From: an uncultured Candidatus Saccharibacteria bacterium
GTDB taxonomy: Bacteria > Patescibacteriota > Minisyncoccia > Phycocordibacterales > UBA918
Reading direction: 5' to 3'
DNA length: 64,000 bases
Assembly: GCA_964593375.1 (NCBI GenBank)
Contig: CAZQIF010000003.1
Span: 11,210-75,209 of the forward strand
Shown here: in pieces, positions 2,404 to 60,121 of the stretch
How the letters are laid out: the number at the start of each line of letters is the position of its first letter
Numbering within the stretch: position 1 is the stretch's first letter
Position numbers and translations under genes: made by a program
The notes under the pieces: generated by a model
Databases searched by the model: none
What the model was told of the DNA's origin: nothing
What the model saw: the letters and a program-made list of their open reading frames with translations, nothing else

Positions 2404-5400
2404 ATGAAAACAATTACCACAATTATAAAGACAGACGCATTCAAATATGCGATTTTTGCGTTTCTTATCGCAACGGTTGCATTCTTTGCAGTACTCCCAT
2501 TTATTTCAGATATTAATCCACACGTGAGTGGTCCTTCGCTCTCTGCGCTCCTCGTGACCGCCGATGATGGCGGTGGCGATTCAGGGTCTGGAGACTCCGG
2601 TTCAGGTGACAGCGGTACTGGCGACTCAGGTTCAGGAAGCTCAGATGGAGGCGACACCGGCTCAGGTACACCCGGCGATGGTTGCTGTGGTGACGACACC
2701 GGCTCAGGCGAAACTGGTACTGGCGACTCAGGTTCAGGCGAAACTGGAGTTGGCACACCTGGTGACGGCTGTTGTGGTGACGGTGGTAGTGATACTGGCG
2801 GGACACCAACCGATTCAGGAAATTCTGGTGGTGGTGAAGTAGCATGTTCACCCATTTGGAACGGGTGCGGTGGTTACTGGTACCAGAACAGTTGTATCTA
2901 TTCGTGTCCAACAGGGACACATGCAGAAAACGTAAGTGGCGCAAATGATGCTCAGTATTGTGGACTCTCATACAATACTTGTGAACCAAACCCAGTCGAA
3001 GTTGAACCTTCATGTTCAATTTCTGCAAACCCTAACCCCTGTACACTTGGTGCTAATTCACTTTGTGCGAGCTCAATTTCATGGTCGACGGAGAACATGA
3101 GTAACCCTGCAGTTTTCGTGCAGTCAACAGGTCAAAAGTTTGCTGCAGACGATAGTGGAAGTCAGTCGGCTCCATGGATTGATCATGCGGGCGTGACTTT
3201 TGTCGTTAAGGAACAATCTGGTTCTGCTCCAGTCATCTGTTCAGTTTCAGTCTCGGGTGTATGTGCTTCTGGAACGACATGGAATGGCAGTAATTGTGTG
3301 GCACCTACACCTACACCAACCCCAACACCGACACCAACTCCAAGCACACCAACATGTTCTCTTGCTGTGACACAGTCAACGATTACTGCAGGTCAACAGA
3401 CAACGCTTTCATGGTACACAAGTAATTTTCAATCATACAATGTACTCGAGATTGATCGTGGCATAGGTTATGTTACGCCACCACTTAATGGCTCAATGAC
3501 TATTTCGCCGAGCGTGACGACAACCTACACTGGTCATATCATAGATTTCAGTCCGACGAATGTTCGACCATGCTCAGTTACAGTGACGGTTATTCCAGTC
3601 ACTCCAAGTGCACCAACCTGTACACTCACGGCTTCTCCAACTTCAGTAAATCAAGGAAGCGCGTCAACGCTCTCATGGACAACCTCAAACGCCTCAAGTA
3701 TTTCGATTGACCAAGGCGTAGGTGCTGTTGGTGTGAGTGGCTCACAGAGCGTTTCACCAAGCGCAACAAAAACATACACCCTCACCGCAACCGGTGCTGG
3801 GGGTAGTGTGACATGTGCGAAAACGGTAACGGTTATTCCAACACCGAGTGCACCAACCTGTACGCTCACCGCGTCTCCAGCGTCAATCAATCAGGGAAGC
3901 GCGTCGACACTTTCATGGACAACCTCAAATGCGACTTCCGTTTCAATTAACCAAGGCGTAGGTGCTGTTGGTGCGAGTGGCTCAAAGAGTGTTTCTCCAT
4001 CAAACACTACGTCATACACGCTTACTGCGACCGGTGCTGGTGGTACGGTGACCTGTGAAAAGCAGGTGGTTGTAGTAGTACCAAACCCAGCTCCAACCTG
4101 TACGCTTACCGCGTCTCCAACATCAATCAATCAGGGAAGTGCTTCAACACTCAGTTGGACAACAACAAATGCATCGAGTGTGACCCTTAACGAGGGTATT
4201 GGTGCAGTGGCGACGAATGGTTCAAAGAGTGTTTCTCCAAGTGCGACAAAAACGTACACGCTTACAGCTGACGGCGCTGGTGGTACCGTTACGTGTTCAA
4301 AGACCGTGACTGTGGTAGTACCAAATCCTGCACCAACCTGTACGATTACGGTAAATCCTCAGAGTATGACACGTGGTAACTCCGCAATACTTTCATGGAG
4401 CACTACAAATGCGACCGCCGTTGTCATCGACAACAATATCGGCACCGTTTCCCTGAGTGGTACACATACGGTTTCACCAACGGTGACTACTGAATATAAA
4501 CTATCTGCAGTCGGCGCTGGTGGTAGTGTACTCTGCAAAACAACACTTGCGGTGAATGAACCGCCAGTTGCGCCAACGTGTGCGCTTAATGCAAACAAGA
4601 CTGCAATTACCGCTGGTGAAAGTGTTACACTCACCTGGAGTTCAACAAATGCGAACCAAAGTACACTTCAAGGCGTAAATGTCGCGCTCTCAGGAAGTGG
4701 CGTGTACACCCCTGAAACGACAACGACATACACCTATGTGGTAACCGGAGCTGGTGGTTCACAAACCTGCACGAAGACCATTACGGTTACTCCGTATGTT
4801 CCTGTCTCACCAGTATGTTCACTTACGGTAAGTCCAAACAAAATTACAAAGGGAAGTATGGCGACACTCAACTGGACAGTTGGAAATGCGAGTGTGATAT
4901 CAATTGATCAAAACATCGGCACTGTTTCTGCGGTTGATTCTCGTTTAGTGAACCCAATACAAAACACAACCTACACTCTCACGGCTCGCGGTGAAGCAAA
5001 TCAGACCGTGACTTGTGTTGCTTCACTCGTTGTTGAGGAACCGCATGTTGACGATCCGGTGAAGTGCGATGCATTCAGCGCTTCGCCAAGTACGCTTACT
5101 GCTGCTGGCACCACGACACTCACTTGGAATACTTCAAATGCAACGAATGTTTCAATTAACAACGGTGTTGGTACCGTGTCTGAAGATGGCGGAAAAAGTG
5201 TCTTTGTGGAAGCAAATACAACCTACACCCTCACCGCAACCGATGGTGACAAAACAGTAACCTGTCAGACGCAAGTGAACATTGTACCTCCTACGGTGAT
5301 TGTTCCTAAGTGTGACGCGTTCTCGGTCAGTCCATCATCTCTCAATAAGGGTGAAACAGCGACACTTACATGGGCCACCACAAATGCTTCATCAGTTTCG

Positions 5401-6435: not shown

Positions 6436-6462
6436 AATAGAGAATAGAAGATAGAAAATATA

Positions 6463-6497
6463 GAAACACCCGCACAGCAAAGCTGTGCGGGTGTTTC
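6463..6497. terminator. bidirectional hairpin between convergent genes
   Basis: GAAACACCCGCACAGC aaa GCTGTGCGGGTGTTTC, a perfect 16-bp stem, between the surface protein (+) and thrS (-), flanked by AT-rich repeats. Confidence 0.55.
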
Positions 6498-6537
6498 TAT
6501 TCTATATTCAATATTTCTATATCCTATATCCTATATT

Positions 6538-8295
6538 CTACAGTGTTTTCGTCTCAACCTCAGTAAGGAGATGATTCCCAAGCTTTGAGACCGACATCTG
6601 CTCTGACGTACCATTTCGTGACTCAAGCGTGACATTTTTCTCAGCAACTTCCTTGTCTCCAACGACAACAAAGTAGGGAAGTTTATCTATTTTTGCATTG
6701 CGGATTTTCTTTCCCATCGATTCGTTACTATCGTCGAGCGTTGCGCGAATACCCACTGCCTTGAGTTCATCAAAGACTGTCTTTGCGTATTCGGTATGGA
6801 TTTCTGAAACCGGAATAATACGTACCTGTTCTGGAGAAAGCCAGAGAGGGAAGTTTCCACCAAGGTGTTCAATAAGTACTGCAGAGAAACGTTCAATCGA
6901 ACCCATGATTGCGCAGTGAATCATTACAATGCGTTCTTTTTCGCCTTGCTCATTGACGCAGGTAAGATCGAAGCGCTCGGGCATGTTCATGTCGAGCTGG
7001 ATGGTTGCAACTTGATGCTCACGTCCGAGAGAATCTTTTGCCATGAAGTCGAGCTTCGGTCCGTACATCGCTGCTTCTCCTTGTGCCTCAAAGTAATCAG
7101 CATTTCGCTCTTTTGCAATTTCTCTGAGTGCATTTTCCGCGTTACTCCAAATTTCTGGTGTACCAAGATACTTTTTGAACTCGAGCGGATCATGGAAGGA
7201 AAGTCGTACGCGAAGTTTGAAGCCGAATGCTCCATAGAAGGTGTCTATGATGTCCCAAATTTTGAAGAATTCTTGCTTCACCTGATTGTGTCTGCAGAAT
7301 ACATGCGAGTCGTCTTGTGTGATTGATAAGACGCGCGTGAGACCGCCAAGCTCGCCCGATTGTTCATCTCGATAGACCATTGTTGTTTCAGCGTATCGTT
7401 GTGGCATGTTGCGGTAACTGTGGGGTTGTCGGTCAAAAATTTGTGTGTGATGAGGGCAGTTCATGGGCTTCAGTGCATACTCTTTTCCTTCACGGGTTGT
7501 AATGCGGAAAAGCTCATCAGCAAATTTATCCCAGTGTCCTGATGTTTCGTAGAGATTCTTTTTTGTGATATGCGGAACGGTCACACGCTCATACCCATGC
7601 TTCAGTCGAAGTTCCCACACAAAGCTATCGAGGAGATGACGAATTTGCGTTCCTTTTGGTGTCCAGAGAGGAAGTCCTGGTCCGACGAGTTCTGAAAATG
7701 TGAAGAGGTCGAGTTCTTTCCCAAGTTTACGATGGTCTCGCTTCTTTGCTTCTTCAATTTGGTTAACGTACGCATCAAGTTCTTCTTTGGTGTCAAACGC
7801 GTACCCATAGATGCGGGTGAGCATCGGATTTTTTTCATCCCCGCGCCAGTACGCACCCGCGACAGCGTGGAGCGTGAACGAATCGCTCCCGATTTCTTCT
7901 GCTGGCTTTTCTGAATGGCCACCACGACAGAGGTCGGTGAATGCTTGGTCGCCTGAGCCGACCGTGTAGAGGGTGATAGTTGCACCTTCTTTTTCGAGGC
8001 CATTGATGAGCTCAGTCTTGAAGACGTTTCCGGCGAAGGCCTCACGGGCTTCGGGGGCCGTGACTTCCTTGTGCGAAAATTCTTTCCAAGAGGGAAGGAT
8101 TCTACGCATCTGCTTCTCAATTCCCTTCAAATCTTCAGTGGTTGGCGCTTCCCCACCGCTAAAATCAAAATCGTAATAGAACCCATTTTCGATTGATGGG
8201 CCTATGGTTGGCTTTGCGTGTGGGTACTGCGTTGTGATGACCTTTGCAAGAAGATGGGCAAGGGTATGTCGTTTTTGGGTGAGCTTGTCTTCCAT
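6538..8295 (-). CDS. thrS: threonyl-tRNA synthetase (lacks the N-terminal TGS domain, editing domain present)
   Basis: Class II motifs including KPMNCPHHTQIF; editing-domain HxxxH (RHTLAHLLA) and CxxxH (LCRGGH); anticodon-binding C-terminus. Confidence 0.9.
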   Translation of the reverse strand: MEDKLTQKRHTLAHLLAKVITTQYPHAKPTIGPSIENGFYYDFDFSGGEAPTTEDLKGIEKQMRRILPSWKEFSHKEVTAPEAREAFAGNVFKTELINGLEKEGATITLYTVGSGDQAFTDLCRGGHSEKPAEEIGSDSFTLHAVAGAYWRGDEKNPMLTRIYGYAFDTKEELDAYVNQIEEAKKRDHRKLGKELDLFTFSELVGPGLPLWTPKGTQIRHLLDSFVWELRLKHGYERVTVPHITKKNLYETSGHWDKFADELFRITTREGKEYALKPMNCPHHTQIFDRQPHSYRNMPQRYAETTMVYRDEQSGELGGLTRVLSITQDDSHVFCRHNQVKQEFFKIWDIIDTFYGAFGFKLRVRLSFHDPLEFKKYLGTPEIWSNAENALREIAKERNADYFEAQGEAAMYGPKLDFMAKDSLGREHQVATIQLDMNMPERFDLTCVNEQGEKERIVMIHCAIMGSIERFSAVLIEHLGGNFPLWLSPEQVRIIPVSEIHTEYAKTVFDELKAVGIRATLDDSNESMGKKIRNAKIDKLPYFVVVGDKEVAEKNVTLESRNGTSEQMSVSKLGNHLLTEVETKTL

Positions 8296-10216: not shown

Positions 10217-13200
10217 TTATTCAGGAGATTTTTCTTCTGTACCACCAAGCGCTTTTACCTTCTCAAGCGCAATTGTTGGCTCTTCATTTCTGATTGAGAG
10301 GCGGCCTTTCACGGCGACGCAGGTGCCGGGGATGAGGAGATTTTGGTGCGCGCGATACGTTTCAGGGAATGCGACGAGTTCAACGGTGTCGGTATAGTCA
10401 CCGAGCTGAACGAAGGCCATTTTCTCTCCCTTTTTTGTGAGTAGCTCACGTACGGTTTCAATCATACCAGCGGTCACAACCGGAATGCCGTTTCGGCTGT
10501 CTCGTTTGATGCTTGTAATCGTTGAGCGTTTTGCAAGTTCTTCTGCATACTCATCGAGCGGGTGTCCGGAAACATATACGCCAAGAAGTTCTTTTTCCCA
10601 CGTGAGTTTTTCGATTTTGGTGGCCAGAGGAGCTTCGGCGAGAGTCACTTCGTGGAATGCGACATCGGGAACAAGTCCAAAGAGTGAGTCTTGAGAGGAT
10701 TCTTTGCTTGATGCGTGTTCTTTGTGGTACGCGAGGAGGACGTCAATATTTGCGAGCATTCTTCCACGATCTTCAAATCGGTCGAAGGCCCCCGACATGA
10801 TGAGTGCCTCGAGTGACTTTTTATTTAAATTTCTATTTGTGATTCTCTTGAGGAAATCTGAGAGCGATGCAAATGGTCCGTTAGTCTTACGCTCTTCGAT
10901 TATGGCTTCGGAAATGCCTTCGCCAAAATTCTTGATTGTGGTCAGCCCAAACCTGATTTTCGCGGGCACGTCGTGCCCCAGGGTACTCTCTCTGCCTTCG
11001 GCATTCACCTTGTCGTGCGCCGGAACAACTGAGAAGGGCCCGAAGCTCTCATTTATGTCAGGTGGTAACACCTCAATCTGCATGTGCTCACACTCGTGAA
11101 TAATTTCCGAAATTTTTTCGGTGTCGCCGGCGTCTGCGGTGAGTACTGCAGACATATACTCGACCGGATAGTTCGCCTTCATGTATGCGGTCTGGTATGC
11201 GACGCGACCATAGCTCGCGGCGTGTGCCTTGTTGAATCCGTAGGCGGCAAATGGCTCGATGAGTTTCCAAAGTTTTTCAGCAAGCATGGGGGAGAGCTTT
11301 CCAAATTCAGTAAAGCCCCTCAGAAGCTTTTCTTTTTCTGCTTCCATAACCGCGGGAATTTTCTTTCCCATTGCTTTGCGGAGCATGTCGGCTTCGAGCC
11401 ATGAGTAGCCCGCGAGCTCGCGCGCAATCATCATGACGTCATCTTGGTATGTGATGACACCATAGGAACGCTCGAGTACTTTTTCAAGGCGTGGATCAAG
11501 ATACGCAATGAGTTTCGCATTGTGTTTGCGTTCAATGTACTGTGGAATCGATTCCATTGGCCCCGGGCGATAGAGGGCCACCATCGCGTTGATGTCGTGA
11601 ATCGAAGTCGGGCGTAGTTGCTTGAGAAATGCGGTCATACCGGAACCGTTCAATTGGAAGAGACCCATGGTTTCGCCGCGTGCGAGCATCTCAAAAGTTT
11701 TTTTATCGTCGAGTGGAATATTTTCAATATCGATTTCAACTTTGTGAATGACACGCACGCGGCGCACTGCCTCTGCAAGAATAGAGAGGTTTTTAATACC
11801 GAGAAAATCGAACTTGAGAAGCCCCACACCGTCTTCACCAACGGAGTGCATTTCATACTGCGTGATGAGTTTGCCGGTTTTCGGGTCGGGCTGGAGTGGT
11901 ACAAACTCCGTGAGTGGTCGCGGTGCAATCACGACACCCGCTGCGTGCACACCCACATGGCGCACACGTCCTTCAATTTGTTTCGCGAGGTCAATGACCT
12001 GCTTGGTGTCAGGATCTTTTTTGTAGAGGTCCATGAGGTCGGGTTCAATATCCATCGCATGCGTGATGGTCATTGGAAATCCTTGGCTTCCCATCGGAAT
12101 GAGTTTTGCAATGCGGTCGCCGGTTGAATATGGATGACCGAGGGCGCGCGCGACGTCACGTACCGCAGCGCGCGCCATCATGGTTCCAAAGGTACCTATT
12201 TGTGCAACATGGTCTTGGCCATATTTCGCGCGCGCATAGTCGATGATTTCGTCACGGCGGTTGTCGGCATAGTCCATGTCGATATCGGGAGCGGATGGTC
12301 GTTCAGGATTAAGAAAACGTTCGAAGGGAAGTTTGTACTCGAGTGGATTTACATTGGTAATACCGAGCACGTAGGTTGTGAGTGAACCCGCGACCGAACC
12401 TCGAATGGTGGTGAGAATTTTTCGTTCGCGTGCTTCACGAATGAGGTCACCCACGACGAGAAAGTATTTTGCATAACCCTTCATCTTGATGACTGAAAGT
12501 TCGTAGTCGAGGCGCTCTTTCACAATAGGGTCTTCGAGCGTGAGACCGCGCCACGCCACACCCTCATACGCAGTATGGTGGAGTTCATCATCAGGTTCAC
12601 GCTTGCTCTCAATTTTGTAGTCGGGGAAATACCAGTTTTTTCCGGGTGACATCGTGACGGTGCATGCTTCGGCAATTCTGACCGTATTTGCGAGAGCCTC
12701 GGGGGTATCTTTAAAAAGTTCTTTGGCAGTTTCCTGTGAAATAAAAGAAAAGTTTGGGGCAAGTTCACCACTATCATCAGTGGTGTCGAGAATACCACCG
12801 TGCTGAATTTTGAGCATTGCTTCACGCGCGAGGTGGTCGGTTTTATTTAGGTAGTAGACATCATGCGCCGCAACAAGTGGTGTTCCTGAACGTTTTCCGA
12901 GCGCAATAATTTTTTCTTGGAGTGCCTCATGTTCCTGAATTTCTGGATGATGGGTGACCTCGAGGTAACAGTGTTCACCAAAAACGCTCTTGTACCAGTC
13001 GAGACTTGCTCCAGCTTTTTCCGCATCTCCGTCTTTGAGTGCAAGCACTGGTTCACCACTAAATGAAGGGATGATGCAGACGAGATTTTTTCCAAATTCT
13101 GCGAGGAGATCATGGTCGATGCGTGGTCGGTAATAGAATCCATTCACGTATGATTCGGTCACCATCTTGATGAGGTTCACGTACCCATCATTATTTTGTG

Positions 13201-15735: not shown

Positions 15736-15841
15736 GACAATTACTTTGATCTCTTCTGGTACTCTACGAAGCGTTTGATTATGGCGTCTTCACAAAGCAT
15801 TAGGAAAAGCATTGTGAAGACGGACTCGGAAAATATAATCG
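15736..15841 (-). repeat. intergenic repeat family 1, copy E (hairpin element abutting the nusB-Nudix stop)
   Basis: Reverse complement reads TATATTTTCCGAGTCCGTC, stem GTCTTCACAATGC...GCTTTGTGAAGAC, then GCCATAATCAAACGCTT; collinear with copies A and D. Confidence 0.55.
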
Positions 15842-16078
15842 CTAGCGCTCATTATTTTCCGGCCACGCCTCAGCCTCAGTTCCTCGTGCGCCTCGCATCT
15901 TTCGCAATTCTAGCAATTTTCAAGTATTGCAAGATTGTTTCTACACTTAGTTTCACCTTTTTTATATTCCATAACCTATATTCATTATTCAATATCCCAT
16001 ATCCTATATTCCATATTCAATATCATATATTTTTACCTTTTCATTTTTAATTTTTAAATTTTGTGTTAGTCTAGCGCC

Positions 16079-16789
16079 ATGACCGATATGAGCGACATCG
16101 AACAATCTCTTACAAATCTCCAAAAAAAGCTTGGGGTGACCTTTGTTGACCCTCAGCATCTCCTCACGGCGATTACACACCGTTCCTATTTAAATGAGCA
16201 CCGCGAGGCAAAACAAGACCACAATGAACGTTATGAGTTTTTGGGTGACGCCGTACTTGAACTCGTGGTGACTGATTTCCTTTTTCAAAAATACCCAGAG
16301 AAACCCGAGGGTGAACTCACTGCCGTTCGTGCTGCGCTCGTGAACACTATTTCAATTTCTGAAGCCGGAGTGCGTCTTGGCATCAATGATTTCCTCCTCC
16401 TTTCAAAAGGTGAGGAGCGCGATACGGGACGGGCGCGCCAGTACATTCTCGCAAATGCCTTCGAGGCTATCATCGGAGCAATCTATCTCGATCAGGGATA
16501 CGAATCTGCAAAAAACTTTATTGGCGATGAGCTTTTCGATCTCACCGATACCATTGTTGCAAAGCGCTTGTGGCAAGATGCAAAGAGTCGCTTTCAGGAA
16601 CTTGCGCAAGAGCATACAAATATCACGCCGAGTTACGACATGATAAGTCAGGTTGGCCCCGATCATGACCGTGTCTTCACGGTTGGCGTCTTCTTAGGGA
16701 GTGAAAAAATTGGAGAAGGAAAGGGCCGTTCAAAACAAGAGGCTGAACAAGAGGCAGCCCTGAAAGCAATTGAAGCGAGAAATTGGTGA
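16079..16789 (+). CDS. rnc: ribonuclease III
   Basis: ERYEFLGDAVLELVV signature and dsRBD. Confidence 0.88.
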   Translation: MTDMSDIEQSLTNLQKKLGVTFVDPQHLLTAITHRSYLNEHREAKQDHNERYEFLGDAVLELVVTDFLFQKYPEKPEGELTAVRAALVNTISISEAGVRLGINDFLLLSKGEERDTGRARQYILANAFEAIIGAIYLDQGYESAKNFIGDELFDLTDTIVAKRLWQDAKSRFQELAQEHTNITPSYDMISQVGPDHDRVFTVGVFLGSEKIGEGKGRSKQEAEQEAALKAIEARNW

Positions 16790-16866
16790 CCAGAAATTAA
16801 GGAATGTAATGACTATAATTTCTGAGTCCGTCGACACGTGCTTTCCCTATGCTTCGTGTCGACGCC
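16790..16866 (+). repeat. intergenic repeat family 1, copy A (starts at the base after the rnc stop)
   Basis: CCAGAAATTAAGGAATGTAATGACTATAATTTCTGAGTCCGTC, then stem GTCGACACG...CGTGTCGAC, then GCCGTAGTCAAACGCTT; a partial second copy lies at 16901 to 16934. Confidence 0.6.
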
Positions 16867-16998
16867 GTAGTCAAACGCTTTGTCAGGTAATGATTAGGTG
16901 ATTTCTGAGTCCATGGCCTAGAAGTTAAAGAGCGCAAGCGTAGGCGATTTCACCAGTATAGGGCATCGATGTTTATAGACTCATGGTAAAATACAGCC

Positions 16999-17544
16999 AT
17001 GAGATTTTTTAATAATACACAAAAGCACAAAGGTTTTACGATGATAGAGGTTGTAGTCGCCGTTGCTATTATTGCTCTGCTTGCTTCAGTTGTTATTCTG
17101 AGCATTCAGGAAATTAAAAAGAAGTCTCGTGACGCACAGCGATATTCTGATATGTCTAATATAGAACTTGCCCTTCGGTTATATAAAGATAGTAACGGAG
17201 AGTATCCTACGACGAATAATGAACAAAGGTCTGTCTGCACAAATGGAACGGATCCAACAGCACGAGATATCACAGGTCCTAATGGATATATACCTAATTT
17301 GGCCCCCACGTATCTTCCGGTCCTTCCAGTTGACCCCAGTAATTGCAACGATTCAGGGTCAGTGCATGGATACTTTTACAGATCAAATGGGACAGATTAC
17401 AAATTTGCTATTGATTTTGCTGCAGAGAAAGGTTCTGAATGCGAACCTGGGAAGAAGTTTGATGACCCATACCCAGGTCGTGATGCGGGAACTGGAGAAC
17501 TCTGGTTCTGCTCAATTTTCTCACCAGGTGCGGCAAATTGGTAG
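16999..17544 (+). CDS. type IV pilin / pseudopilin (prepilin-type N-terminal methylation domain)
   Basis: Leader MRFFNNTQKHKG then FTMIEVVVAVAIIALLASVVI. Confidence 0.75.
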   Translation: MRFFNNTQKHKGFTMIEVVVAVAIIALLASVVILSIQEIKKKSRDAQRYSDMSNIELALRLYKDSNGEYPTTNNEQRSVCTNGTDPTARDITGPNGYIPNLAPTYLPVLPVDPSNCNDSGSVHGYFYRSNGTDYKFAIDFAAEKGSECEPGKKFDDPYPGRDAGTGELWFCSIFSPGAANW

Positions 17545-25943: not shown

Positions 25944-26131
25944 GTGTTCCTTTTTTCTACTCACATTATTCACAAGGGTGAATGTACACGGCATACACCC
26001 ATGAGAGTTGAGGGGTATTAATAATCTGCATAGTGATTTTAGAGTTAGTTCGTCTTTTCAAAGCATTAGGAACAGCAATGAAAAGACGGCCAAGATTCTC
26101 TAATTCGCTACGCTCATAACAGAATCTAGGC

Positions 26132-33246: not shown

Positions 33247-33314
33247 TCGCGACAAAATTCCACTAACGTCAACACCTCACCCTAAGCACAAAAATCCCGT
33301 ATAATACACGCATT

Positions 33315-35091: not shown

Positions 35092-36432
35092 GTGGACATT
35101 ATGGCTCTGAAAAAGACCAAGAAACAGAATACAAAAGGAAAAAAGCCGGCTCCAAAAAAGCCGGTCAAGAAGTCTATAAAAGCAAAAAAGTCTGCACCGA
35201 AAACAAAAAAGGTGTCAGCAAAAAAAGGAGCCAAGAAAGTAACACCAAAAAAGAAAGTTACAAAGAAGGTAGTTAAGGCAAAGAAGGTTGCTCCGAAAAA
35301 AGTCGCAAAGAAAGCGGTTGTTAAAAAACCAGCAAAGCCAGTAAAGCTCACGAAGGCAGAATTGCTCCTCGAGAGTAAGGCAGCAGTACTTCTTACCGCA
35401 GGACGCACACGCGGATACATTACGTATGACGAAATTCTCAAGGAATTTCCTGAGATTGAAAACAACGTCAACTTTCTCGAGACACTCTACGAACGTCTAG
35501 CGACGGCGAGTATTGATGTGCTCGGCTCAGGTGGTATGCTCGGCAACGACGAGAACGAAGACCTGCTCGACAAGCGCAATGTATATCGCCGAAACGAAAG
35601 TAGCGGATACGATTCTATTCAGATGTACCTACGTGAAATCGGCCAGTACCCACTTCTTACCGCACACGAAGAGCGCACACTCGCGAAGCGTATTGTGGAC
35701 GGTGATGCAGAGGCACGTAATCTCCTCGCACGCGCAAACCTCCGCCTCGTTGTTTCTATTGCAAAGAAGTACGTAGGACGAAGCCCTGACCTCACACTCC
35801 TCGACCTTATTCAGGAAGGAAACCTCGGTCTCTTTAAAGCGGTTGATAAGTTCGACTTCACGAAAGGATTCAAGTTTTCTACGTATGCAACGTGGTGGAT
35901 TCGTCAGGCAATTACCCGTGCACTCGCCGACCAGTCACGCACCATTCGTATTCCGGTACACATGGTTGAAACAATGGCAAAGTACAAGCAGGTCTCACGA
36001 CGCTTGGCACAAGACTTAGGCCGTGACCCAATGGCAGAAGAGATTGCGACCGAGATGGGTGTTGAAGTAGAAAAAATTTACCAGATTGAAAAAATCAGTC
36101 AGGATACTATTTCACTTGAACTTCCAATCGGCGACGACGATGATCGCTCACGACTTTCAGACTTTATTTCAGACGACAAGATTATGGCGCCAGACCAAGA
36201 GGTTGCACATCGCATTCTCGCCGACCAGATGCAAGAAATTCTTGATACGCTTTCAGAAAAGGAACGCAAGATTCTCGAAATGCGTCACGGACTTCTCGAT
36301 GGTACGTACCACACACTCGAAGAGGTGGGGAAGGAGTTTGGGGTTACCCGCGAGCGTATTCGCCAAATCGAAGCAAAGGCTCTCGAGAAGATTAGACAGC
36401 ACGAGAAGGCTAGACGTTTAAAGAGCTACTAA
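35092..36432 (+). CDS. rpoD: RNA polymerase sigma factor RpoD with a histone-like Lys/Ala/Pro-rich N-terminal tail
   Basis: Regions 2 to 4 ([30 protein letters not shown], region 4 helix-turn-helix); about 80 aa K-rich N-terminus. Confidence 0.9.
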
Positions 36433-36577: not shown

Positions 36578-36613
36578 CAAAAATCCCTGAACGTCTGTTC
36601 AGGGATTTTTGTT
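36578..36613 (+). terminator. intrinsic terminator
   Basis: AAAAATCCCTGAA cgtctg TTCAGGGATTTTTGTT; the same stem recurs at 39078 to 39113. Confidence 0.55.
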
Positions 36614-36673: not shown

Positions 36674-36717
36674 GTATATCACAGCTTTGTTGTCGAACGA
36701 CAACAAAGCTGTGATAT
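36674..36717. promoter_or_regulatory. perfect 21-bp-arm palindrome (operator or hairpin candidate)
   Basis: TATATCACAGCTTTGTTGTCG aa CGACAACAAAGCTGTGATATA, 20 nt upstream of the regulator start. Confidence 0.5.
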
Positions 36718-36736
36718 ATTTAAAGTACACTTCTGT

Positions 36737-37324
36737 ATGAGTAATTTTTCTTCTAAAAAATTCAATCATATCGATTTACTCCGCAAACAATCGCGTTCAT
36801 ATCGAGTACTGCAGGAGATTTCAGCAGGCGATATGTTTGTTGGATTTCTTCTTTCTGCTCGGAGTACCAAACTTATGTACCAAGTTGCGCGACGACGCGC
36901 TCAAGAGCGATATCAAAACAAGAAAACAATTTTGGAGCTTAAGGCATCGGGATATGTGACCGAAAGGGAGGTCTCGGGTCAACCATCATTTTTCATTACC
37001 AAAGCGGGAAAACAGGCTTTGCGGGAAGTGTATCGAAAAGCGCATGCTCAGCACACAAAACCGGCCTCATGGGATGGTTTATGGCGAGTGGTTTCGTATG
37101 ATTTCCCTGAAGGTGAAAGGAGTGTTCGTAACTCTCTGCGGTATGTGCTTGAAAAAGCTCAGTTTTTGCAAATTCAAAAAAGCGTTTGGCTTTCGCCGTT
37201 TGACTCACAAGAACTTGAAAAGGTAATTGCGAGTCATACAGTGGCCAAAAATCATGTTGTCGTAATGGTTGTTCGCTCTATTTCTGAAGAAGAACGATAC
37301 AAGAAGCATTTTCGACTCAAGTAA
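36737..37324 (+). CDS. PaaX-like transcriptional regulator (start uncertain; the ORF is open back to 36632)
   Basis: C-terminal WDGLWRVVSYDFPEGERSVRNSLRYVLEKAQFLQIQKSVWLSP resembles the PaaX C-terminal WDGxW region. Low confidence because the call is by recollection only. Confidence 0.45.
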   Translation: MSNFSSKKFNHIDLLRKQSRSYRVLQEISAGDMFVGFLLSARSTKLMYQVARRRAQERYQNKKTILELKASGYVTEREVSGQPSFFITKAGKQALREVYRKAHAQHTKPASWDGLWRVVSYDFPEGERSVRNSLRYVLEKAQFLQIQKSVWLSPFDSQELEKVIASHTVAKNHVVVMVVRSISEEERYKKHFRLK

Positions 37325-37338
37325 TACCATCCACAACG

Positions 37339-37380
37339 GTATCACGCCTTTGTTGTCGTTCGACAACAAAGGCGTGATAC
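37339..37380. promoter_or_regulatory. second perfect palindrome, near-identical to 36674 to 36717
   Basis: GTATCACGCCTTTGTTGTCG tt CGACAACAAAGGCGTGATAC; differs from the first at two positions, mirrored in both arms. Confidence 0.5.
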
Positions 37381-37598
37381 ATTTTGGATCACATTTCGTT
37401 TCAGAGTCCGAAGGTTTGGAAATTTTAGGGTGGAGTGTAATGCAAGTGGGGTATAAACGGCTGGATTGTAGGATTGGGAGACGCCCATAAGGTGTGCGTG
37501 TTCTCCTAGCTTCGAGCTCCGGAGGTGGAAACCAAGCAGCGAAGTATGTAATTGGTAACCACTTTTATTAACCCCGAAAAGGAGTAGAATTTAAGTAT

Positions 37599-38495
37599 AT
37601 GAAACCTCTTTATCTGCCACATTCCCAAGGCACGTTCCTCGGAATAGTTGGCGTCGCTTTGTTATTATTCATACAATTCATTCCACAGATAGCTGACGCA
37701 GCGTCAGTGTGTTCATTCTATCGTGACCTCCGTATGGGAAATTCAGGTGAAGATGTACGCTGTCTTCAACAGTACCTCAATGAAGAGTACCTTGCGGGTA
37801 TTGGCTATACGCTCGGGACACCGAGTGGCGTATATGATGGCTACACACAGCAGGCAGTACAGTGGTGGCAACAAGCAAATAAGGTCAGTCCAGTAACAGG
37901 TAGTTTTGGTCCACTCTCACGAAGTCGCTACCATGCGCTCCCACATAACGGGCTTGTCATATACGATTCTGACGAAAATGATAGGTTCACGACAGGTGAT
38001 GAAGCAAATGCACAAAATGCGATTGAAGACGCTTTTGACGAGATTGAGAATGCAAAGGACGAGATAGATGATGCAAACAGTGGTGCGAACATTAGTCGAG
38101 CAGAAGACCTGCTTTGGGACGCATATGAAGAACTTCTTGATGCACTCCTCGCATATTTTGATATGGATTTTAACGACGCAGAAGATTTTGCAGATGATGC
38201 ACAGAATAGTGCGGAAGATGCATTCGATGAAGCAGAGGGGGACTCAAACAACCGCAATGACGACGTTGATGAACAGCTCGACGACGCATGGGATGAGTGG
38301 AACGACGCATGGGATGAATTCAGTGATGCGGAGGATGACGACGAAGACACAAATGATGCAGAAGACCTCCTTGAAGATGCAGAAGACCTCCTCAATGATG
38401 CTGAAGATGAACTCGATGATGATAATGAAGACGATGCGGAAGACCTTATCGAAGACGCGCTCGACCTCATAGACGAAGCATTGGATGAGTTTTAG
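37599..38495 (+). CDS. secreted peptidoglycan-binding-domain protein with an extremely acidic Asp/Glu/Ala-rich C-terminal half
   Basis: Signal peptide; PG_binding_1-like block (GNSGEDVRCLQQYLN...GIGY...DGYTQQAVQWWQ); about 180 aa of DAEDxL / DDAWDEW repeats. Confidence 0.6.
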   Translation: MKPLYLPHSQGTFLGIVGVALLLFIQFIPQIADAASVCSFYRDLRMGNSGEDVRCLQQYLNEEYLAGIGYTLGTPSGVYDGYTQQAVQWWQQANKVSPVTGSFGPLSRSRYHALPHNGLVIYDSDENDRFTTGDEANAQNAIEDAFDEIENAKDEIDDANSGANISRAEDLLWDAYEELLDALLAYFDMDFNDAEDFADDAQNSAEDAFDEAEGDSNNRNDDVDEQLDDAWDEWNDAWDEFSDAEDDDEDTNDAEDLLEDAEDLLNDAEDELDDDNEDDAEDLIEDALDLIDEALDEF

Positions 38496-45624: not shown

Positions 45625-45687
45625 GCTTGCTTAGAATGCTTAGATTTTATTAATGATTGTAATGAATTTAGAAAATCTTAGCTGTGG

Positions 45688-45772
45688 CCAGAAATTAAGG
45701 AATGAAATGACTATAATTTCTGAGTCTGTCGATTTTTCTTCTTCATTGAAGAAAAATCGACCATACCCTTTC
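45688..45772 (+). repeat. intergenic repeat family 1, copy C
   Basis: CCAGAAATTAAGGAATGAAATGACTATAATTTCTGAGTCTGTC, then stem GTCGATTTTTCTTC...GAAGAAAAATCGAC; 47 of 50 nt identical to copy A in the 5' part. Confidence 0.6.
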
Positions 45773-45892
45773 CATAATGTTTTCTGGTGACGAACGAACT
45801 CTAGTTTCACTACTTTCGGTCTTTACTTGTAAACTATTTTGTATCGACAAGTATACCATACACACTCATTTTGACATGCTATACTGCTTGGG

Positions 45893-46702: not shown

Positions 46703-46727
46703 CCCGAAAATAATGAGCCGAAGGCGA

Positions 46728-46800
46728 CTATATTTTCGGAGTCCGTCGACACAATGCTTTTCGTAATGCTTTGTGTCGACGCCCTACTCAAACATCCGAT
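46728..46800 (+). repeat. intergenic repeat family 1, copy D (25 nt after the uppP stop)
   Basis: CTATATTTTCGGAGTCCGTC, then stem GTCGACACAATGC...GCTTTGTGTCGAC, then GCCCTACTCAAACA. Confidence 0.55.
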
Positions 46801-57123: not shown

Positions 57124-59088
57124 ATGTCCCGCGCGATTACGTTAGGGAATGGCAATCTTTTGGTGGGCCTGGATCACCGCGGTCAGGTTCGTGATTTCTA
57201 TTTTCCATTTGTTGGGCACTCAAACCATGTAAGTGGTGCGAGTGGTTCGTATGTTCATCGAGTTGGCGTGTGGATAGACGGAACACTCAAATGGCTCTCC
57301 GATGAATCGTGGGATATCAAAATTGAGTATACCGAATTTACCGGCACAAGTGATATTCATGCGCGCAATAAGGATCTTGGCGTCGAACTACATATTACCG
57401 ACGCGGTGCACAACGAGCGTAATATTTTTATTCGGCGAGTGCGCGTCACAAACAGTCGTGACCACACACGGGAAATAAAAGTATTTTTTGGACAAGAATT
57501 TCGCATTTCTGAATCAAGGCGTGGCGACACTGCTTTTTATGATCCGCGCGTGCGCGCCATTGTGCATTACAAAGGGCATAATGCGTTTCTCGTTCATGCT
57601 GTTGTGAACGACGCACCATTTGTCGATTACTGCGTTGGACTTTTTAATATCGAAGGGAAGCAGGGAACGTACACCGATGCAGAAGATGGCATTCTTTCTC
57701 GAAATCCGATTGAACACGGTTCGGTTGATTCTGTGCTCGGAGTCACGTTCGAGGCTCAGCCGAAAGAAAGCATTGATGTATATTATTGGGTTGTGGTTGG
57801 AAAATCTATTAGTGAGACACACAAACTCCACCACCATATTCAGGATGAAAAACCTGAGACAATCATCACCTCAACCGAGCGCTATTGGCAAGCGTGGACA
57901 GAAAAAGAATCCCGAGACTTGTCACATCTTGAGAAACATCTTCAGCATCTCTACAAGCGATCCCTTGCCATCATTCGTGTACACACGGACAATCGCGGTG
58001 GCATTATTGCTTCCTCTGATTCGGATATGTTGAATCAAGGGCGAGACACCTACAGCTACGTGTGGCCACGCGACGCCGCGCTTACCGCAAATGCACTTGA
58101 TAGAGCGGGGCATATCGATGTGACGCAACGCTTCTTTACCTTTATGGCCGAACGACTTGAACCAGATGGATACCTCATGCATAAGTACCGTGTCGATGGG
58201 GTACTCGGAAGCTCGTGGCATCCCTGGGTACAAAATGGTGTTTTTAAATTGCCCATTCAAGAAGATGAAACCGCTTCTGTTCTCTACATGCTCGCGCAGC
58301 ATTACCACTACGCGAAAGACCTCGAGCTCATCGAATCACTCTATAACTCCTTCATTGAACCCGCTGCCGATTTTATGTGCGGGTACATCGAACCAGAAAC
58401 TGGCCTTCCGGTCGATTCGTATGATCTTTGGGAAGAAAAATATGGCTCTTCGACATACACGGCGGCTTCGGTCTATGGTGCGCTTAACTCCGCAGCAGAG
58501 CTTTCGGCAACACTCGGTAAGCGTGAGAATGCGAAAAAGTATCGTGATCGCGCGGAGCTCGTAAAAAGTGCGATTCTTACGCATCTCTATGATGTTTCCT
58601 CTGGAATGTTTGTGAAACTTGTACGTCACGAACGCGGAGGTCTCACATATGATAAAACAGCCGACATGAGTAGTTTCTTCGGCATTGTGGCGTTTGGTGT
58701 TCTCGATTCTTTTGATAAGCGAGTACAGAGTGCATTTAAAGTAGTACAGGAAAAGCTCAAGGTACCTACTTCATTCGGTGGTTACATGCGCTATGAGGGT
58801 GATAGGTATTACAAAACAGGAAATGATGCACCCCCAAACGCATGGTGTATTACCACCTTGTGGGTAGCACAGTACCACATCATGTGTGCGAAAAATAAAA
58901 AAGACCTGGAGAAAGCTCACGATATCATGAAGTGGGTATATGATCGTGCTACAAAGAGTGGAATTTTACCCGAGCAGATTCACCCGTACACTGGCGAACA
59001 CCTCTCGACTGCGCCACTCGTTTGGAGTCATTCCGAGTTTGTGATTACGGTAGATGAGTATCTCAAGAAACTTGCAACCTTCAAATAA
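57124..59088 (+). CDS. glucoamylase / glucodextranase (GH15) with an N-terminal beta-sandwich domain
   Basis: Catalytic region SYDLWEEKYGSSTYTAASVYGAL (LWEE general acid) and an (alpha/alpha)6 barrel layout. Confidence 0.8.
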   Translation: MSRAITLGNGNLLVGLDHRGQVRDFYFPFVGHSNHVSGASGSYVHRVGVWIDGTLKWLSDESWDIKIEYTEFTGTSDIHARNKDLGVELHITDAVHNERNIFIRRVRVTNSRDHTREIKVFFGQEFRISESRRGDTAFYDPRVRAIVHYKGHNAFLVHAVVNDAPFVDYCVGLFNIEGKQGTYTDAEDGILSRNPIEHGSVDSVLGVTFEAQPKESIDVYYWVVVGKSISETHKLHHHIQDEKPETIITSTERYWQAWTEKESRDLSHLEKHLQHLYKRSLAIIRVHTDNRGGIIASSDSDMLNQGRDTYSYVWPRDAALTANALDRAGHIDVTQRFFTFMAERLEPDGYLMHKYRVDGVLGSSWHPWVQNGVFKLPIQEDETASVLYMLAQHYHYAKDLELIESLYNSFIEPAADFMCGYIEPETGLPVDSYDLWEEKYGSSTYTAASVYGALNSAAELSATLGKRENAKKYRDRAELVKSAILTHLYDVSSGMFVKLVRHERGGLTYDKTADMSSFFGIVAFGVLDSFDKRVQSAFKVVQEKLKVPTSFGGYMRYEGDRYYKTGNDAPPNAWCITTLWVAQYHIMCAKNKKDLEKAHDIMKWVYDRATKSGILPEQIHPYTGEHLSTAPLVWSHSEFVITVDEYLKKLATFK

Positions 59089-59258: not shown

Positions 59259-59300
59259 AATTTATATTATGATGTCCACGTGGACATCATAATATAAATT
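59259..59300. other. perfect 42-bp palindrome with a CACGTG core
   Basis: AATTTATATTATGATGTCCAC|GTGGACATCATAATATAAATT, 9 nt downstream of the truB stop. Confidence 0.5.
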
Positions 59301-59308
59301 AAAATCTC

Positions 59309-60121
59309 TCAGAATCTCCGGAGCCAAAAACCAAAATGCTTTCCGAGAGGAAAGTACTTGCCGATTGTGGTGCGGTGAATTGAGTATGCAAGGCCACACG
59401 TGCCAAATTTTTTCCCAATAACTTCTGCGAGCGAGCGCATGTAGGTCCCAGATGAAGCGACACAGGTAATGTTCGCTATGTAATATGCGGTGTTGTTGTC
59501 GGGTGATCTTTCCAAATCATTCCAACATTTTCGTACCTCAGTTCGGCGGAAATCTCGTCCGAGTACCTTTCGTTCATCGGTTACTGTAGGAATTGTTTCT
59601 ATTTTTTCGAGTACATTTTTGCAAAGCTCACTACGTGTAATCGTTCGAAGACTATTAAGCACAATTTTGTAAATACGTGATTCTTTCACTGGGATTTCGA
59701 TTTCATCAAGCCTCTTTTCAAGTGTCCACATGTGGAGTGGTTTCCCCCCTACGGTTTTTGCAGAGAAGTGTGGATAGGGAAGGGTAATATTTCCAATAAA
59801 CCTCAGAAGCACATCCTGAACTTGTTCCTCGTCAATCGCTTTGGTGTCACAGGTCTCTATAATACCAAGCACATCACCGGTATCAGAGTGTACTCCGAAG
59901 AGGACTTCAAATATGTACTCTTTATCGAGCGAATGGTATTTTTCTTGCCGTTTACATTCGTCGCCCACAAGAATAAGGAGTTTTCCTGAAGCCATTGGGT
60001 CGAGCCTTCCTGCATATGCAAGTGGAATACTTGAATTCAGTTTATGAAGCTCACGCAAACGGAGCGTCGCCTGAAGCGGAGTTTCACCAACTTTTTTTTC
60101 TATGGTGAAATATTTTCGCAC
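59309..60121 (-). CDS. truB: tRNA pseudouridine55 synthase
   Basis: GRLDPMASGKLLILVGDECK (TruB motif II with catalytic Asp). Confidence 0.85.
   Translation of the reverse strand: MRKYFTIEKKVGETPLQATLRLRELHKLNSSIPLAYAGRLDPMASGKLLILVGDECKRQEKYHSLDKEYIFEVLFGVHSDTGDVLGIIETCDTKAIDEEQVQDVLLRFIGNITLPYPHFSAKTVGGKPLHMWTLEKRLDEIEIPVKESRIYKIVLNSLRTITRSELCKNVLEKIETIPTVTDERKVLGRDFRRTEVRKCWNDLERSPDNNTAYYIANITCVASSGTYMRSLAEVIGKKFGTCGLAYSIHRTTIGKYFPLGKHFGFWLRRF

Follow-up and report, generated by a model that had tools for sequence, protein, structure and literature searches.

The candidate phyla radiation (CPR, or Patescibacteria) consists of bacteria with tiny genomes and very few recognisable regulators, for which there is almost no experimental genetics. 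In a stretch of 64,000 nucleotides from one such organism, an uncultured Candidatus Saccharibacteria bacterium (contig CAZQIF010000003.1; the whole stretch is here called the window, and positions are counted from its first letter), a gene for a small regulator-like protein stands between two nearly identical, perfect palindromes, P1 on its upstream side and P2 on its downstream side. Why should a single gene be bracketed in this way, and does the arrangement belong to this genome or to the gene? The answer that we favour, with somewhat more confidence than doubt, is that P1 and P2 are the cognate recognition sites of an autoregulated protein, part winged helix-turn-helix (wHTH)-like and part Cas2-like, that is encoded between them.

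An earlier note on this DNA, made from its letters alone, had described two perfect palindromes around a gene, and both direct reading of the sequence and an independent run of a repeat finder returned them (Table 1). P1 itself is as described, at 36675-36718, one base higher than the interval of 36674-36717 given there. The close flanking of the gene also stands, with gaps of 18 nt from P1 to the ATG and 14 nt from the stop codon to P2 in place of 20 and 15 nt. Mirrored substitutions between the two palindromes had been noticed as well, and only their number needs correction: compared arm by arm, P1 and P2 show three mirrored differences instead of two (AG against GC in the middle, plus one position close to the outer end), and additionally an unmirrored one at the outermost position. 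With the spacers AA in P1 and TT in P2, the two sites are oriented as reverse complements of each other, and only one open reading frame lies between them.

P1 carries a centre, GTTGTCG-NN-CGACAAC, and an outer block, TATCAC/GTGATA, that are conserved among related loci. A 19-nt half-site, TATCACNNCTTTGTTGTCG, occurs exactly four times in the window, as the four arms of P1 and P2. Allowing up to three mismatches adds one further match, at 6663, whereas shuffled windows contained a mean of 0.24 such matches and five were reached in none of 100 shuffles. No copy of the palindrome beyond this pair was found in the window. Both palindromes are predicted to fold as perfect hairpins on either strand (-32 to -38 kcal/mol), with z scores of -8 to -9 for P1.

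Conservation and co-divergence of the palindromes

The ten closest fetchable orthologous loci share 44-67% identity (L001-L006, 46-51%; L081-L083, 60-67%; and L084). The core GTTGTCG-NN-CGACAAC is found upstream of the gene in all ten, within a few tens of nucleotides, and the same 16-bp core recurs 5-30 nt downstream in 9/9 loci with that flank analysed (L084 was left out), the downstream site being degenerate in L002 and truncated by the contig end in L005. Arms in the orthologs measure 18-29 nt and share, besides the centre, an outer block of the form TAT(C/A)(C/A)C. The 4-8 nt between centre and outer block differ from site to site, even within one genome, yet they are mirrored within each site.

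This mirroring was quantified in a gap-free alignment of 19 sites. The sites had been picked by a 14-nt core only, which makes the pairing observed further out in the arms independent of that choice. Overall, 90.5% of the cells were paired and both-sided changes were present in 14 of the 21 pairs; double-change cells numbered 80 as against 23.6 in shuffles (none of 500 shuffles reached 80), and slid controls gave 30-49% pairing. On the sense strand, the mismatches in these sites include 11 of the G:T and 13 of the A:C type. There is thus no tolerance of wobble pairs as in transcribed hairpins, which points to symmetry at the level of DNA, and on the same count a structure in the sense-strand RNA was rejected. 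A known RNA family was also discarded as an explanation: Rfam matches reached the gathering level nowhere in the window, and those on the palindromes were only noise from miRNA hairpins, below threshold.

The genes next to the module vary among the orthologs and include rpoD, a UvrD-like helicase, an ABC ATPase, an RsmA-like gene, DUF1761 and others, which indicates that the palindromes accompany this gene rather than any of its neighbours. Partial synteny exists within sublineages (uvrD-X-rsmA in L003 and L004; ABC ATPase-X in L002, L006 and L101). The earlier suggestion that the palindromes delimit a mobile gene cassette is not borne out, as the gene looks stably and vertically inherited, with such partial synteny in some lineages.

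The arrangement extends well beyond the close orthologs. Across 80 homologous loci from many CPR phyla (Saccharibacteria, Gottesman-, Giovannoni-, Staskawicz- and Lloydbacteria and others), near-perfect long palindromes adjoin the gene, mostly with a spacer of 0 or 2 nt and with arms of up to 28 nt. A tight long palindrome was present in 54 of the 153 intergenic regions flanking the gene, compared with 9 of the 275 others at the same loci (odds ratio 16, p 9e-19). Under strict criteria 21 loci have palindromes on both sides, the copies being near-identical within a locus and unrelated between subfamilies, as illustrated by ...GCACGTGC..., ...ACGCCATGGCGT..., ...GCTATAGC..., ...GACGATCGTC... 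and ...GGACGGTCGTCC... Similarity between palindrome centres climbs with similarity between the proteins, from a mean of 0.27 to 0.62 (Spearman 0.35), and several metagenome-assembled genomes (MAGs) hold two or three paralogs, each with its own palindrome. Nothing argues more strongly for recognition of the palindrome by the protein than this co-divergence of the two.

The orientation of the flanking copies is inverted in 6/9 informative loci and direct in 3/9 (L004, L074 and L076), and in L083 the spacers are also opposite (TT, AA). We considered consistently inverted sites, as in transposon-like terminal inverted repeats or an invertible segment, and set this option aside; with six inverted loci, three direct ones and the rest uninformative, orientation is indecisive. 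Two distant family members have three cognate palindromes near the gene, L050 at 2821-2854, 3717-3752 and 4387-4422, and L039 at 3743-3776, 4385-4424 and 4463-4498; in L050 the downstream copy matches the reverse complement of its imperfect upstream counterpart exactly.

The encoded protein, its promoter and the surrounding genes

The protein matches Pfam PaaX_M (PF20803), a central Cas2-like domain, over residues 110-185 with an E-value of 3.3e-17 and 62.8 bits against a cut-off of 24, and its homologs share this domain. A Foldseek search of the PDB placed E. coli PaaX (8a39) and Rv0674 (3kfw) at the top, followed by about 30 Cas2 chains and VapD; the alignment to PaaX covers 135 columns with a template modelling (TM) score of 0.37, and the many Cas2 structures in the list have E-values of 0.008-0.1. 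Hence, the earlier description as a PaaX-like regulator survives both a profile search (PaaX_M, E 3e-17) and a fold search. In an AlphaFold2 (AF2) model built on 25 homologs (pLDDT 78), the C-terminal part forms a confident beta-alpha-beta-beta-alpha-beta ferredoxin-like domain, and the N-terminal part shows long helices and a beta-hairpin wing at moderate confidence. The N-terminal PaaX domain PF07848 was not reported by hmmscan at E ≤ 0.01, and the sole N-terminal Pfam match was a weak one to the winged-helix family DUF6293_C, below its cut-off; judged from the model and the Foldseek alignment, a resemblance in fold to the PaaX winged helix, short of demonstrated family membership, is plausible. 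The PaaX_C domain gave no match, and the protein stops at residue 195, right after the Cas2-like domain. The protein is therefore a truncated, CPR-specific relative of PaaX, for which "PaaX-like" is right at the level of domains and PaaX proper is not.

Its likeness to Cas2 lies at the margin of the profiles, TIGR01573 giving 24.9 bits against a cut-off of 24.5 and Pfam CRISPR_Cas2 20.3 bits against 23.8, which is below threshold. Residues W112, D113, W116, D122, E125, R131, R135, Q147, S149 and W151 are invariant in the family and form a Cas2-resembling YDFPE...QKSVW pattern in which D122 is the aspartate of the Cas2 catalytic position. Rv0674 has neither the D and E of YDFPE nor the YDFPE and QKSVW motifs as such. 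The protein carries a Cas2-like domain, yet it is no stand-alone Cas2.

Homologs are found nearly exclusively in CPR/Patescibacteria, with 361 stretches encoding relatives among the GTDB species genomes, which spreads the family over hundreds of species, and it comprises 2685 clusters (50% identity, E ≤ 1e-3), nearly all of 180-200 aa. A profile search of the window in six frames found no paralog besides the gene itself. An origin from a phage or a defence system was rejected, there being no homologs in IMG/VR, only weak Cas2 models in PADLOC and a single weak "transcriptional regulator" match in PHROG. Matches by sequence in the PDB to the centromere-binding wHTH proteins AspA and TubR were not significant (E about 0.5) and were likewise dropped.

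No Shine-Dalgarno sequence precedes the gene, and its mRNA is likely to be leaderless or to have a very short leader. P1 spans roughly -62 to -19 relative to the ATG and, with either of the two candidate -10 boxes listed in Table 1, would cover the core promoter region; overlapping the promoter as it appears to do, the upstream palindrome is probably not transcribed. Six orthologs have a -10-like hexamer (TATAGT, TATCAT or GATACT after TGn) in the outer right arm, exactly 6 nt before the ATG and without a Shine-Dalgarno sequence. In the wider family the pattern TGnTAnnnT is present in 10 of 25 gene-proximal arms of upstream sites, compared with 4.5% of shuffled arms, in 1 of 25 distal arms of the same sites and in 5 of 68 arms of downstream sites. 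The earlier note's proposal of an operator for autoregulation fits these observations, in that the upstream palindrome overlaps a promoter recognised by motif and the palindrome co-diverges with the protein. A missing Shine-Dalgarno sequence is the rule in the window, where 9/10 sampled genes have none (33285-33314, 45863-45892 and others) and several show a -10-like box 6-9 nt before the ATG (TATAAT before dnaG; TATACT before a UppP-like gene); this suggests widespread leaderless mRNAs in the source genome, with leaderless or near-leaderless transcripts as the local norm.

Table 1. Palindromes, gene and candidate promoter elements of the module, in window positions
Feature	Position	Strand	Description
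Palindrome P1	36675-36718	no strand	TATATCACAGCTTTGTTGTCG-AA-CGACAACAAAGCTGTGATATA; 21-nt arms, 100% complementary, 2-nt spacer
Candidate extended -10-like TG-A-TATATT	36712-36720	+	straddles right end of P1; read in sequence
Second candidate -10, TACACT	36726-36731	+	5 nt before ATG; read in sequence
Gene for wHTH-like + Cas2-like protein	36737-37324	+	195 aa, PaaX_M domain; ATG 36737, stop ends 37324
Palindrome P2	37339-37380	no strand	GTATCACGCCTTTGTTGTCG-TT-CGACAACAAAGGCGTGATAC; 20-nt arms, 100% complementary; then ATTTTGG
Weak extended -10-like TG-A-TACATT	37373-37381	+	right end of P2; faces PG_binding_1 gene 218 nt off

Upstream of the module come rpoC, dnaG and rpoD and then, directly before P1, an ordinary terminator (36578-36611); terminators of this kind in the window consist of a GC stem flanked by A and T runs. 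The downstream gene (37599-38495), whose product carries a PG_binding_1 domain (E 3.5e-9) and is very acidic in its C-terminal half, is one for which the weak -10-like element at the end of P2 is a possible promoter. The intervening 218 nt (37381-37598) are non-coding, have no Rfam match and end in AAAGGAG, one of the few clear Shine-Dalgarno sequences in the window. The RpoD homolog (35092-36432) is extended at its N terminus, before region 1.1, by about 90 aa that are rich in lysine and alanine and contain KKxxKK repeats.

Elsewhere in the window, about three tandem units of 240 nt with 75-78% identity lie inside a long coding region (3586-4349), which probably belongs to a repeat-domain surface protein. 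A perfect hairpin with 19-nt arms (6460-6500) sits inside AT-rich 7-mer repeats (TATAGAA/TATTCTA) at 6436-6540, and a tract of 7/14-mer repeats at 15963-16031 resembles them. In a further repeated unit, a promoter-like GACTATAAT is succeeded by TTCTGAGTCCGTC and next by a hairpin of the GTCGACAC...GTGTCGAC type, with copies at 16786-16880, 45684-45765 and 46726-46795 on the + strand and inverted copies at 15783-15845 and 26051-26110. A pilin-like gene (16999-17544) is preceded by at least one of these copies, and the unit, which has no Rfam match, may be a conserved promoter with a 5' stem-loop or a small RNA.

Proposed recognition sites and competing explanations

How might such a pair of sites work? 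The C-terminal Cas2-like domain would probably give dimerisation and the N-terminal winged-helix-like part would bind DNA, a dimer or a pair of dimers sitting on the symmetric site and reading the GTTGTCG-NN-CGACAAC centre together with the TATCAC/GTGATA outer block; the 4-6 nt between these would be unread and free to vary. Binding at the upstream site, over the gene's own promoter, would result in autoregulation, most likely repression. Symmetry at positions that seem to be unread would be kept at the DNA level, probably through hairpin- or cruciform-templated correction. Template switching on extruded hairpins is a known mechanism for quasi-palindromes.

The role of the downstream copy is less obvious. 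The earlier note had proposed that it controls the secreted protein encoded next to it, and as a general explanation this fails: the neighbour is not conserved among the orthologs, the gene after the downstream palindrome is co-directional in 16/32 loci and convergent in the other 16/32, and no family-wide enrichment of the promoter motif TGnTAnnnT was found in downstream palindromes. An operator for a conserved downstream target was rejected on the same grounds. P2 may still control the PG-binding gene in this genome, to judge by the TG-A-TACATT element that faces it, but such control cannot be the general reason for a second copy. P2 passes a terminator consensus scan, with the tail ATTTTGGATC, as do some orthologous downstream copies with short T runs, and P1 fails it. 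We conclude that the second copy belongs to the 3' end of the gene, where it would probably be a strong hairpin or terminator made from operator sequence, a second operator acting through a loop or as a roadblock, or both.

Might the palindromes be hairpins and nothing else, that is terminators, insulators or mRNA-stabilising stem-loops that shield the gene from read-through, in RNA or DNA, and that the encoded protein does not specifically recognise? Very stable predicted folds, the terminator-like call on P2 with its ATTTT tail, the T runs that follow the downstream copies in L001, L004 and L006 and the compensatory changes that keep the symmetry would all agree with this. A generic terminator, however, would neither preserve a 16-bp core among orthologs with proteins about 50% identical nor diverge in step with the protein. 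Most downstream copies of the wider family are without T tracts, the upstream copy overlaps the promoter and is probably untranscribed, G:T and A:C mismatches are equally frequent, and the ordinary terminators of the window, such as that at 36578-36611 with its GC stem and its A and T runs, look different. We regard hairpins alone as improbable, and less likely than a cognate pair of protein and site.

A more serious challenge comes from copies of the palindrome that lie away from the gene. A metagenome collection scanned for TTGTTGTCGNNCGACAACAA returned 35 loci, of which about 20 were bare, chance-like matches with arms of 9-12 nt and 14 were long palindromes with arms of 15-28 nt. Of these 14, L101 alone adjoins a homolog of the gene, on whose opposite flank there is another copy; the remaining 13 are solo copies with no such gene within reach, representing about 12 distinct loci, as L099 and L117 have the same sequence. 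Several solo copies have an outer block as in the gene-flanking sites, among them those in L104 and L114 (TATCCC[C/A]ACC...), which resemble the downstream site of L082, and those in L085, L104 and L109 lie between convergent genes. The earlier note had taken scattered copies as the mark of a generic repeat: there are none in the window besides P1 and P2, but solo copies do exist in related metagenomic contigs, some of them inside coding genes. Occurrence of the palindrome family away from the gene implies that the site can duplicate to new places, and the palindrome is thus more than a private operator.

Three solo copies lie in frame within genes for enzymes. The palindrome in RNase HII (L087) accounts for an extra loop of about 10 aa in comparison with solved structures. 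In an RluA-type pseudouridine synthase, a 40-bp unit is present in L116, which is longer here by a net +30 nt, and missing in the syntenic, 96%-identical L119; as other lineages have degenerate palindromes in this loop, gain and loss are ambiguous for the indel. The UbiE-like methyltransferase of a Lloydbacteria MAG (L126) is the cleaner case of insertion, its additional 17 aa corresponding to a perfect 52-bp palindrome that is absent from 8 homologs. The identical 40-bp unit recurs at two loci of one groundwater sample (L089 and L116). No target-site duplications are evident around the solo copies, and no further copies were found in the 17-kb L119 or in the rest of L126; judged from these two and the window, copy number per genome seems low. 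The link between the contigs with solo palindromes and genomes encoding the cognate protein is a presumed one.

Two side observations concern similar palindromes. Between the groundwater contigs L116 (4298-4335) and L119 (about 11600-11660), which are otherwise 98% identical in this region, mnmA differs in that one allele has a perfect palindrome with 17-nt arms (TTCATTCCAACATTCTG followed directly by CAGAATGTTGGAATGAA) and the other a different, imperfect palindrome at the same place; this patch is a hypervariable palindromic stretch within a coding gene. In the window itself, a perfect 42-bp palindrome with zero spacer (AATTTATATTATGATGTCCAC followed directly by GTGGACATCATAATATAAATT) lies at 59259-59300 between the convergent 3' ends of a GH15-like gene (57124-59088, +) and a TruB-like gene (59309-60121, -). 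It is in the style of the palindromes of the gene family (CACGTG-type centre, outward CATAAT); the six-frame profile search of the window placed no PaaX-like paralog near it, and it may act as a terminator in both directions or as the solo site for a paralog that lies elsewhere.

Several observations weigh against recognition sites as the whole explanation. Arms of 20-28 nt far exceed those of usual operators, and recognition by a dimer is by itself insufficient to account for an arm middle that is symmetric though it differs between the sites of one genome. The model of the N-terminal domain is of only moderate confidence (pLDDT 50-86), no Pfam HTH family matches this domain above threshold, and the conserved Cas2-like YD(F)PE and QKSVW motifs are compatible with a catalytic role. 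P1 lies about 12 bp farther from the ATG than its counterparts in the L001-L006 orthologs, which makes the overlap with the promoter less clean here; in half of the loci no regulatory target of the downstream copy is obvious; and a simple regulon would not predict solo copies within coding genes.

Of the other explanations, the one that fares best is a partnership resembling that of repetitive extragenic palindromic (REP) sequences with REP-associated tyrosine transposases (RAYTs), which we consider unlikely overall. The palindrome would then be a selfish or domesticated duplicating element and the wHTH-Cas2-like protein its enzyme, a nuclease or another factor handling DNA, which would recognise the element, probably in hairpin or cruciform form, and propagate or maintain it; the gene-flanking pair would mark a master locus like the REP pairs at RAYT genes. 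Such a partnership would be in keeping with the family-wide flanking of a single-copy, stably inherited gene by two cognate palindromes, the commoner inverted orientation among asymmetric sites, the 13 solo long palindromes with the same 20-nt core against one gene-associated match, the identical unit found twice in one groundwater sample, the in-frame insertions in rluA, the methyltransferase and RNase HII, and the invariance of D122 and E125, which are missing from Rv0674. It is difficult to reconcile with the lack of extra copies in the window, L119 and the rest of L126 and of any visible target-site duplication, with the ambiguous direction of the rluA polymorphism, with the absence of a known transposase fold and with solo-palindrome contigs that are not tied to genomes encoding the cognate protein; moreover, the nuclease activity of Cas2 is dispensable even in CRISPR adaptation.

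A bolder version, to our minds a shade more doubtful still, would make the CPR wHTH-Cas2-like proteins the active partners of an unrecognised class of short, perfectly palindromic duplicating elements, a non-HUH analogue of the REPIN-RAYT system. The Cas2-like domain would cut or process its own 40-56 bp palindrome, probably as an extruded hairpin, thereby keeping the arms identical and seeding new copies, in-frame ones within genes included, and the protein would be a free-living relative of the Cas2 half of CRISPR adaptation that acts on "palindromic repeats". In the explanation that we favour, too, the site behaves as a duplicating palindromic element with copies in new places, sometimes in frame in housekeeping genes, an architecture that resembles REP and RAYT.

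Crossover sites for site-specific recombination by inversion or excision, in the manner of hix, lox or dif with inverted elements around a 2-bp core, are very improbable and again less likely than a cognate protein-site pair: asymmetric 2-nt spacers are opposite at the two sites here (AA/TT), in L001 and L083 (TT/AA), in L066 (GT/AC) and in L050 (AC/GT), and some upstream sites (L002, L004 and L006) have a hybrid look, as if combining two types of arm, but no recombinase lies in or beside the module, many sites have a fully symmetric centre without a spacer, L004, L074 and L076 have direct orientation, the hybrids do not match the product expected of one inversion, and the orientation of the gene relative to conserved neighbours is constant where synteny exists.

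Relation to known systems

Full-text literature searches combining PaaX with Cas2, palindromes or CPR names returned nothing relevant, and to our knowledge a module of palindrome, gene and palindrome has not been described. The module combines a known kind of system, the autoregulated repressor with a palindromic operator, with features like those of REP and RAYT; what would be new, and surprising to specialists, is the family-wide bracketing by perfect palindromes of 40-56 bp together with the in-frame copies in enzymes. If each family member is bracketed by its own site, the DNA specificity of hundreds of uncultured regulators could be read from sequence, and CPR regulons would become predictable through a search for solo copies (sites of the CTTTGTTGTCGNNCGACAACAAAG type in the source genome and in organisms of the L001-L006 type). 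Palindromes of such length and perfection are unusual, as are their in-frame insertions in housekeeping enzymes, and together they suggest that some process acting on the DNA generates palindromes in these genomes and homogenises them.

The closest relatives at the level of the protein are PaaX and Rv0674, which share the Cas2-like domain PF20803 and the same order of domains and are the best structural matches. PaaX is a repressor of phenylacetate catabolism that binds palindromic operators. It has about 300 aa and a C-terminal domain, whereas the window protein has 195 aa, lacks PaaX_C and has no N-terminal PaaX match in Pfam. In contrast to Rv0674, the window family keeps the Cas2-like YDFPE and QKSVW motifs, and its sites are perfect palindromes of 40-56 bp on both sides of the gene. 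No paa genes lie near the module; the neighbours are rpoD and the PG_binding_1 gene here, and a helicase, an ABC ATPase, an rsmA-like gene and DUF1761 in orthologs.

With REP and RAYT the module shares a single-copy gene that looks vertically inherited, the two palindromes of its own that flank this gene, and subfamily-specific repeats; to judge by the solo copies in related metagenomic contigs, it may share dispersed copies as well. Unlike a RAYT, the window protein is no HUH/Y1 (IS200/IS605-like) transposase, only PaaX_M and Cas2-like domains having been found in it. The repeats of the family are longer than REP sequences, perfect, without the GTAG head and apparently low in copy number, with none beyond the pair in 64 kb, and their mobilisation by this protein is conjectural. 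The Rickettsia palindromic elements (RPE), small palindromic elements that insert in frame into genes, offer a parallel to the insertions of 10-17 aa in enzyme loops (RluA-type pseudouridine synthase, RNase HII, methyltransferase); RPE measure about 100-150 bp, whereas the unit here is a perfect palindrome of 40-52 bp tied to a dedicated protein gene.

The likeness to Cas2 consists of the ferredoxin-like fold, the YD of beta1 and the QKSVW/F motif, and profiles at or near threshold. The 64-kb window contains no CRISPR-like array, no cas1 and no other cas genes. In the window protein the Cas2-like domain is fused to a DNA-binding domain, and the two "repeats" bracket the gene itself. This domain is a possible evolutionary link between a family of DNA-binding regulators and the adaptation module of CRISPR.

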